IMG/VR virus record: IMGVR_UViG_3300048762_000248
Location: 54,568 to 118,567 of that record
Length of the DNA stretch: 64,000 nt
Source: a virus
Strand: one strand, 5' to 3'
Shown: positions 22,612 through 23,683 of the stretch, in pieces
Numbering within the stretch: position 1 is the first letter of the stretch
Layout: every line of letters starts with the position of its first letter
Program-made: the position numbers and the translations under genes
Notes under the pieces: model-generated
Told to the model about the DNA's origin: nothing
Database searches by the model: none
What the model saw: only the letters and a program-made list of their open reading frames with translations

Positions 22612-23022
22612 AGTCGGTATATAAATAGATTTGATGGCGGATGGTGGGTGGCCGGGAAGTGCTGAATTACCCGGATGATCTGAGTCGCATTAGATGACCA
22701 CCAAATGTGATTTGTTAGCTTAAAGAATAAAGCGCCGCTAGTTGGCGTATGCCCGGTGGAGATGCGAAATCGTTACTCGCACAAATCACAGCGTATAAAT
22801 ATTTTGAGAAAATGAAATGACACATCAACACCAACATGAGCATCAAGAACGTGTGGGCGGCTGTGTGTCTCTTCATCAACATCAGCTTTAGCCCTCATCG
22901 TTCTGATGATGGTTTCCCTTTTAGCTTTATGGTGCTTTGAGTGTGATGGTTGCACGTCGCTCTGTGAAAGCGCAGGAGTCAGTCCGATTCTGACATTGCA
23001 CCCCAACATTTTAGGAGTTTAT

Positions 23023-23683
23023 ATGATTATCGAAATTCGAGCAGCAGAAGGTGGGTTAGACAGTAAGTTGTTAGTAGAAGACCAATTTTCTATCTATTTG
23101 AAATTAGCAAAGCGGAGGGGTCTTTGACGTTGAACTAATTGATATCCGATCAGGGATGGTAACATTCAAGGTAAGTGGACCCGGCAGTGAGATTTTTCAA
23201 AATGAATCAGGTCTGATGCAATGGCAACGTATTCCACCAACAGAGAAGAAAGGCCGCACACAGACCTCATTGATTTCGGTTGCGGTTCTTCATGATGTGG
23301 AAGAGAGTTCTTTGAAAATTGAAGAGAAAGATTTGGAGTGGAAGGTGACAAATTCCAGCAAGAAGGCGGGCGGTCAGTCCGTGAATACCGCTTATAGTTG
23401 TTGCGAGTTGAAACACCTTCCCACTCAAACAATTGTTCGCTGCCAAAATGAGCGGTCGTTGTACCAAAATAAACGTTATGCCTTGGAGATCATGCGTGCT
23501 CGGTTGATGCAGCAGAAAGCCGATACAGAACACGCAACGAGATCCGAAGACCGGCGCAACCAAATCGGCATTGGTGACCGTGGAAATAAGCGGCGCACAA
23601 TTCGGGTGAAAGATGGTCAGGTGAAAGATCATTTGACGGGCAAGACGTGGCGGTACGAAGATTATAAAAATGGCAAGTGGTAA
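23023..23683 (+). CDS. Truncated class-I peptide chain release factor (domains 2-4, PrfH-like) that needs a +1 frameshift at 23122-23128; join(23023..23124,23126..23683)
   Basis: Frame 1 encodes MIIEIRAAEGGLDSKLLVEDQFSIYLKLAKRRGL and then a stop. The +1 frame continues DVELIDIRSG...QRIPPTEKKGRTQTSLISVAVL (PxT-type motif PPT) ...KKAGGQSVNTAYS (GGQ) ...RCQNERSLYQNK. The junction reads GGAGGGGTCTTTGAC, which is SD-N1-CUU-UGA-C as in prfB. An AGGAG SD lies 5 nt before the ATG at 23023. Confidence 0.7.

Follow-up and report, generated by a model that had tools for sequence, protein, structure and literature searches.

The stretch analysed here, 64,000 nucleotides (nt) of the viral record IMGVR_UViG_3300048762_000248 in the IMG/VR collection (positions 54,568 to 118,567 of that record; referred to below as the window), carries at 23023-23683 a release factor (RF) gene that is divided between two reading frames. 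A first-pass annotation, made from the letters of the window alone, had described a release-factor homologue without domain 1, split over two frames and joined by a cassette of the type found in prfB, the gene for RF2. The sequence and its Pfam matches agree with the first statement, and the cassette, a Shine-Dalgarno (SD) element followed by CUU, UGA and C, can be read off the sequence at codons 34/35. The start was placed at 23010, but the actual start is 23023, and 23010-23022 carries the ribosome-binding site. From the sequence we consider it likely that this is one gene for a 219-amino-acid (aa) RF1-derived factor without domain 1, which would be made via a programmed +1 frameshift of the prfB type. 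The gene consists of two open reading frames (ORFs) and has the following features.

23013..23017, plus strand: ribosome-binding site AGGAG, read off the sequence, spaced 5 nt from the start ATG at 23023
23023..23127, plus strand: ORF0 in the zero frame, beginning with ATG, 34 codons (MIIEIRAAEGGLDSKLLVEDQFSIYLKLAKRRGL), then TGA at 23125-23127
23114..23118, plus strand: SD-like internal stimulator GGAGG (inside GGAGGGG), with the spacer GGT placing it 3 nt before the slip codon
23122..23124, plus strand: slippery P-site codon CTT (Leu34), for which +1 re-pairing on TTT is proposed; CTT in 91 of 91 homologues
23125..23128, plus strand: in-frame stop TGA followed by C (at 23128), a weak termination context
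23126..23683, plus strand: ORF1 in the +1 frame, 185 codons and TAA at 23681-23683; remainder of domain 2, GGQ domain 3 and domain 4
23234..23242, plus strand: PPT tripeptide, residues 71-73 of the fused protein, in the RF1-type context QRIPPTEKKGRTQTS
23369..23377, plus strand: GGQ, the peptidyl-tRNA hydrolysis motif, residues 116-118; these columns are invariant in the homologue alignments

The junction (23113-23128) reads CGG AGG GGT CTT TGA C. The ORF0 peptide begins with MIIEIRAAEGG, closes with KRRGL and encodes strand beta1, the first helix and the GGxD tip of RF domain 2. ORF1 translates as DVELIDIRSG...RIPPTEKKGR...AGGQ...KW up to its stop codon, and ORF0 and ORF1 together amount to 219 aa. 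In the zero frame a second TGA (23131-23133) lies one codon past the first, so that readthrough would add one codon only and could not rescue the gene. Since the homology also sits in the +1 frame, readthrough of the window UGA was rejected as an explanation. Transcriptional slippage was likewise discarded, because the run of T is only three bases long and thus too short. The pattern GGAGG-N3-CTTTRA occurs once in the 64-kb window, compared with 0.01 occurrences expected from shuffled sequences. The junction is base-for-base identical in the Logan assembly SRR35911405, a run that may share its sample with the window and therefore gives weak independent support. A megablast search of window positions 22000-25000 against the INPHARED phages returned no match.

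Conservation and distribution of the split gene

Homologues were collected from viral and bacterial sequences. An IMG/VR scan with the single protein returned nothing, while an alignment-based scan succeeded; 80 loci were taken of 419 hits. Together with one INPHARED huge phage and the window they make up a viral set of 82 sources, the IMG/VR loci lying mostly on contigs of 50-470 kb. From GTDB, where one genome per species was scanned, we took the best 80 of at least 543 hits. In a protein search, the homologues of ~220 aa were of two kinds, with either full or ~80% coverage of the query. The N-termini of the latter (...SGGVF(D/E)...) correspond to the cassette translated in the +1 frame. A +1 split exactly at query residue 34/35 was present in 53 of the 82 viral-collection sources and in 43 of the 80 GTDB loci. 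Pooled, these are 96 split loci with 91 distinct proteins, whose pairwise identities range from 40 to 96% (median 54%).

Relatives without the SD-CUU-UGA-C context and with pseudogene-like frames had been named in the first-pass annotation as what would speak against a frameshift site. What we found is that all pooled split homologues, 91 of 91 distinct sequences, shift by +1 at the same residue, with CTT and a stop. The slip codon is always CTT, although Leu has six codons. It is followed by TGA in 65 cases, by TAG in 25 and by TAA in one, with C immediately after the stop in 76 of the 91. An SD-like run of at least 5 nt is located within 12 nt 5' of CTT in 70 of the 91. Upstream of the shift, the ORF0 residues EIRAAEGG are conserved with every synonymous codon in use, Arg being encoded by all six. 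Because the conserved residues vary so freely in their synonymous codons, ORF0 appears to be kept as protein. In these alignments it is thus under protein-level selection, with the slip-site Leu codon frozen at one of six.

These data bear on the possibility that the locus is a pseudogene, contains a sequencing indel, or specifies two products, namely the 34-aa peptide and a 175-aa protein that could start from a +1-frame ATG at 23156. This ATG does exist in the window, and gene callers as well as NCBI annotate the downstream ORF alone. However, the same +1 arrangement is found in 91 distinct sequences, always as CTT and then a stop, and 82 of them have no +1-frame ATG within 20 codons downstream (only nine do). 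ORF0 is under protein-level selection and supplies two integral parts of domain 2, strand beta1 and the GGxD tip, and the three-T run does not allow for slippage of the polymerase. We therefore give this explanation a negligible probability. Since the +1 arrangement recurs across viral and GTDB loci, neither chance nor sequencing error accounts for the observation. The CTT and stop counts, together with the protein-level conservation of ORF0, argue in the same way that an indel, a pseudogene and independent initiation at ORF1 are ruled out.

The first-pass annotation had spoken of a phage release factor with a conserved switch. The conservation of the cassette holds, but the family is not restricted to phages, since it is also carried by Myxococcota chromosomes, among them the complete ones of Minicystis rosea and Archangium gephyra. 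Further carriers are many genomes of Kofleriaceae, Haliangiales, Polyangia and Nannocystaceae. Pyxidicoccus xibeiensis (L162) has two chromosomal copies, 8001-8537 and 12787-13323, located 4.8 kb apart. Genes for a pseudouridine synthase and a SUI1-like protein lie close by. For the high-GC Myxococcota contexts we used called genes in place of naive ORFs, which are uninformative there, and the two chromosomal contexts inspected, those of P. xibeiensis and M. rosea (L163), look ordinary. In M. rosea (7898-8567) ORF0 is annotated as a separate gene of 37 aa. Otherwise NCBI and JGI name only the downstream ORF, as 'peptide chain release factor-like protein' or 'Peptide chain release factor 1' of 178-188 aa. 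With only the downstream ORF annotated, the true proteins of 219-230 aa are missing from protein collections.

In a neighbour-joining tree, the forms frameshifted at codon 34 group in a single large clade that is embedded in in-frame lineages. Viral and bacterial members are intermixed, and the stop type changes at least 21 times by interchange of TGA and TAG. In L016 and L038, members of a lineage that is basal to the main frameshifted clade, the cassette is located at the 5' end of the gene, at codon 6-9, before the EIRAAEGG strand. In L016 (3973-3994) it reads ATG ACT AGG GGG TGT CTT TGA C and continues in the +1 frame with DAALVEIRSAEGG; in L038 (3967-3994) it reads ATG ACA AAC ACA AGG AGG TCT CTT TGA C. 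By its location, this is a second placement of the cassette at a non-homologous position. A pattern search for further 5'-end cassettes returned only these two loci.

Two sister loci within the frameshifted clade, L004 (~4100-4105) and L006 (~4103-4108), have their frame restored. Each has an in-frame stop at precisely the position of the shift site, GGG CTA TGA CTG in L004 and GGA TAT TAG ATG in L006. Six-frame BLAST of one locus against the other gave mostly off-frame noise and two clean high-scoring segment pairs, and two conserved flanking genes are without in-frame stops. The stops in L004 and L006 could be due to gene-specific readthrough or to an alternative code. We also noted a low-GC (24-41%) clade of in-frame genes (L036, L042, L046-L049, L051, L053, L062, L064-L066, L068, L070, L072 and L080). 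At a position aligned to Trp they carry TGA (SI-TGA-LTG), as code-4-like phages do. In L051 and L066 this position is TAG instead, and a tRNA with anticodon CUA is found nearby in L070, L072 and L080.

Protein family and predicted codon specificity

In the 219-aa fusion, Pfam assigns residues 2-86 to PCRF (profile positions 103-194 of 194) and residues 94-203 to the RF-1 domain. Domain 1 was not found: the fused protein begins at PCRF position 103 of 194, and there is no RF-like sequence in the upstream DNA. Comparison with the profiles of PrfH, ArfB, RF1 and RF2, as the first-pass annotation had proposed, gave RF1 as the best match. The NCBIfam scores are 176.5 bits for RF1 and 122.7 for RF2. 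The RF1 match of 176.5 bits spans profile positions 107-319 of 347. In the comparison with the curated equivalogs, the match is confined to positions 107-327, and the RF1 equivalog cut-offs are missed (174.7 vs 423.25 and 176.5 vs 400 for TIGR00019 / NF001859). Sequences in the PDB score 137 bits for RF1 and ~78 for RF2. An AlphaFold model built from 36 sequences has a mean pLDDT of 85.4 and places the junction in the loop that links helix 12-31 to strand 35-42. Foldseek ranked ribosome-bound RF1 first, with a template-modelling (TM) score of 0.83. ArfB was rejected as an identity, since its profile scores 22.4 bits against a cut-off of 100 and covers the GGQ segment alone, and domains 2 and 4 are present. 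Judged from these matches, the family is an RF1-derived class I release factor without domain 1. Domain 1 of release factors contacts RF3 and the ribosomal stalk. It is needed to stimulate RF3 and is dispensable for codon recognition and hydrolysis (PMC1586002).

The first-pass annotation had called the gene PrfH-like, i.e. a factor that rescues damaged ribosomes in partnership with an RNA ligase. The absence of domain 1, as in PrfH, stands, and ribotoxins are often met by phages. The affinity to PrfH, however, does not: the PrfH profile (TIGR03072) gives 70 bits against a cut-off of 166.65 and against 176.5 for RF1, the PrfH chains in the PDB reach only 38.7 and 34.6 bits compared to 137, and PrfH follows at Foldseek rank 50 with a TM-score of 0.60 compared to 0.83. 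Furthermore, the RF1 decoding residues that PrfH has replaced are kept. The Rnl1 RNA ligase ascribed to this phage was not recovered either, as no window ORF of at least 250 aa matches RtcB or Rnl1. The neighbour is a DNA ligase:

23769-24935: ATP-dependent DNA ligase, 388 aa, the adjoining downstream gene (PF01068; phrog_114, 1e-64)

A conserved ligase neighbour was also lacking in the chromosomal contexts of P. xibeiensis and M. rosea. Overall, a role as PrfH-type rescue factor is very improbable.

The RF1-like decoding elements are retained, namely the GGxD helix tip, QR(V/I)PPTExxGRxQTS and GGQ. Most members keep the RF1 third-base readers (Gln of QRVP and Thr of xTS) as well as the Thr of PxT. 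At the alpha5 tip, Asp replaces a Glu that we take to be Glu119 in the numbering of the T. thermophilus RF1 structures. From this RF1-type head we infer a specificity for UAA and UAG. The first-pass annotation had already remarked that the RF1-type motif does not match the UGA at the shift site, and PPT is indeed seen together with the Gln and Thr readers. The tripeptide varies within the family. Four loci (L050, L074, L076 and L079) have SPT or SPL, which partly resemble the SPF of RF2; these occur only with TAG or TAA at the shift site (4/26) and never with TGA (0/65), in a comparison that ignores phylogeny. The huge phage LR745208.1 (L001, 3200-3260) has an identical cassette and a 4-residue deletion that takes out the PxT tripeptide (VQRT----SNGRIHSS).

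Such variation leads to a different explanation, in which the frameshift is real and the factor has changed its specificity to UGA or to all three stops. UGA would then be truly autoregulatory, as in prfB. This would suit UGA as the majority stop (65/91), the odd tripeptides (PPT itself, PPN in 22/91, and SPT or SPL in the four loci), the exchange of Glu for Asp at the alpha5 tip, and the huge phage that has kept the cassette without the tripeptide. But the Gln of QRVP, the Thr of xTS and the Thr of PxT are still present in most members, RF1 profiles and structures match far better than those of RF2, and UAG is the stop in 25 of the 91. Moreover, tripeptide and shift-site stop show no clean covariation among the 91 homologues. 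We regard a changed specificity as unlikely.

The proposed frameshift switch

What is observed here is how the gene is built, what it is homologous to and that its cassette is conserved; on this basis the following course of events is proposed. Ribosomes would start at ATG 23023 and read 34 codons. They would then stall while tRNA-Leu occupies CUU in the P site and the A site holds the weak stop UGA-C. The internal GGAGG, lying 3 nt before the slip codon, would pair with the anti-SD of 16S rRNA and thereby promote the slip. The tRNA would move from CUU to UUU, and reading would go on in the +1 frame from GAC (Asp35) to the TAA at 23681-23683. This slip would compete with termination. If a release factor reads the UGA first, only the 34-aa peptide would result, so the output of the full factor should rise when termination at this site is slow. 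That the tRNA slips, that slippage depends on release-factor levels, and which stop codons the product reads are predictions from this arrangement.

Because a PxT-type head is not expected to recognise UGA, the stop found in the window, synthesis would report RF2 activity and not the factor's own level. Strict autoregulation would be possible only in the relatives with UAG or UAA. TAA, which is read by both RF1 and RF2, is nearly absent (1/91), and a stop is kept in L004 and L006; competition with release factors therefore seems to be a selected feature. The cassette at two positions and the interchanges of TGA and TAG, at least 21 in number, likewise argue for selection on a switch.

The frameshift could also be real but constitutive, acting as an attenuator that holds the yield at a fixed low level, or fixes a timing, without responding to release-factor activity. 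A stop mismatched to the predicted specificity would be no surprise in that case. UGA-C is the leakiest context with the highest slippage, and the cassette is kept in chromosomal copies of varied contexts. However, all 91 homologues retain a stop, with TAA avoided, the frame-restored sister loci still hold an in-frame TGA or TAG at the site, and the cassette was acquired at two positions. A fixed ratio could also come from promoter or ribosome-binding-site strength, whereas the features seen fit competition with termination. A mere attenuator thus has a rather small probability in our judgement.

Several points weigh against an RF1-type factor controlled in the manner of prfB. UGA, the stop in the window and in 65 of the 91, is not expected for an RF1-type PxT head, and the autoregulatory logic of prfB fails there. 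In prfB itself the premature stop is always matched to RF2: a survey from 2025 that covered 12,753 genomes records TGA (98.6%) or TAA (1.4%) and never TAG (PMC12421855). The tripeptide is PPT instead of the common PAT or PVT, and 22 of the 91 relatives have PPN, which makes the specificity less than certain. A recognisable SD-like element is absent from 11 of the 91 relatives. Finally, use of SD pairing by the host ribosome is suggested by a single feature, the AGGAG before the gene.

With these points in mind, we still favour the programmed frameshift in a gene for an RF1-derived factor. A broader interpretation, which we offer tentatively, is that the family represents an unrecognised class, an RF1-type and probably RF3-independent backup that is switched on by termination stress and acts mostly as a cross-sensor of the other release factor. 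If true, most members would be gated by a stop that the factor itself does not read, which makes them cross-sensors and not autoregulators. The switch would also be plastic, with UGA and UAG interchanging, the cassette at two non-homologous positions, and its replacement by an in-frame UGA or UAG in L004 and L006. These two could then be a readthrough-regulated RF1-type gene, something that is 'unknown' in the recoding literature. The use of both UAG and UGA within one family is a natural experiment on whether the cassette stop acts as a sensor, and of which factor. A recoding-dependent release factor without domain 1 in giant phages and Myxococcota points to regulated termination capacity in infection or stress. 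The culturable carriers Archangium, Pyxidicoccus and Minicystis make the prediction directly testable.

Genomic context and comparison with known systems

The window derives from a T4-like large phage with gp5 and gp6 baseplate proteins and many homing endonucleases. ARAGORN detects 20 tRNAs, and two more are found by Rfam alone (21845-21919 and 28563-28634), so that the tRNA region extends over 21845-48854. The tRNA-Leu(GAG) at 36181-36267 decodes CUU, the slip codon. No suppressor tRNA was found among the tRNAs with an ARAGORN anticodon call; the two Rfam-only tRNAs carry no such call. ORF coverage under codes 11, 4 and 15 is inflated by dropping any stop, and the code was judged from domain ends instead. 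Three Endonuclease-VII genes end at TGA directly after the domain end. Because they terminate just past the domain, TGA is taken as a genuine stop, and the window phage uses the standard code. A code-change module as in recoded phages was rejected, given these TGA-terminated genes and the called anticodons, none of which is a suppressor.

About half of the viral loci have a tRNA array within 4 kb of the release-factor gene, and in the window the upstream neighbourhood of the gene consists of small ORFs and tRNAs. The ~400 nt directly 5' of the gene (22612-23010) contain no convincing ORF and no Rfam match; the long frames there are limited to an antisense ORF of 78 aa and to ORF0 extended upstream in its own frame. 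Homing-endonuclease-type genes are dense in the window (4958-7336, 10856-11548, 19283-19900, 35271-36143 and 45369-45956) and comprise a LAGLIDADG domain inside a 792-aa ORF, the three genes with an Endonuclease-VII domain and several HNH genes. An ORF of 840 aa (42745-45267) matches a vault repeat domain and the shoulder domain of the Major Vault Protein (PF11978, 5e-21), which is unusual in a phage.

The claim of the first-pass annotation that a phage release factor with such a switch is undescribed is in line with our search: in the open-access literature, which cannot prove the point, we found no prior description of a frameshifted phage or RF1-type release factor. The prfB frameshift is a textbook case of autoregulatory recoding, for which surveys give no counterpart on the RF1 side (PMC12421855; PMC5009743). 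A 2016 recoding review lists the RF1 counterpart as 'unknown' and, for viral release factors that need recoding, cites only a giant-virus eRF1 gene (PMC5009743). The family is also unmentioned in a survey of release-factor evolution. Our data support a prfB-type switch in an RF1-type paralogue without domain 1 that is common to giant phages and myxobacteria.

The release factors of huge and recoded phages (Al-Shayeb 2020; Borges 2021 preprint) are, as here, phage-borne and part of a tRNA-rich translation module, and in-frame relatives of the present family occur in low-GC phages with in-frame TGA in their genes. The papers on these phages list RF1 and RF2 genes and mention neither truncation nor frameshifting. 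In contrast to recoded phages, the window phage has the standard code and no suppressor tRNA among its called anticodons. The eRF1 of Mimiviridae is likewise a virus-encoded termination factor that needs recoding (readthrough and frameshifting; cited in PMC5009743), but it is of the eukaryotic type and belongs to an unrelated protein family with other signals and other hosts.

PrfH (RF-H), the rescue factor paired with RtcB, shares the absence of domain 1, a similar length (~200-230 aa) and GGQ. It differs in its weak likeness in sequence and structure, and RF1 decoding motifs are kept in the present family. PrfH genes sit downstream of rtcB in a two-gene operon; the window gene does not, and no window ORF of at least 250 aa matches RtcB. 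Frameshifting has not been reported for PrfH. RF1 (prfA) matches best in profile, PDB sequence and fold alike, and has in common with the family a PxT-type tripeptide, the Gln and Thr third-base readers, GGQ and domain 4. Here, however, domain 1 (~105-115 residues) is absent and scores stay under the NCBIfam cut-offs, and prfA is reported to be without programmed frameshifting (PMC12421855; PMC5009743).

The closest parallel to the cassette is that of prfB, which matches in every element: an SD-like purine run ~3 nt upstream, CUU, an in-frame stop and C (AGG GGG UAU CUU UGA C in E. coli, CGG AGG GGU CUU UGA C in the window). In both cases a short ORF0 is followed by a +1 ORF for the remainder of a class I release factor. 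That gene, however, encodes RF2, whereas the present one encodes an RF1-type paralogue. The stops here are TGA, TAG and TAA in the ratio 65/25/1 and mostly unmatched to the predicted specificity, while no TAG occurs in 8,164 prfB genes (PMC12421855). Furthermore, the prfB site is located in domain 1 at codon 25/26, and the site described here lies in domain 2, aligned to GW of the RF1 motif YAExxGW. Because of this location in domain 2, the shift site is not homologous to that of prfB; the cassette in this RF1-derived family was probably acquired independently.

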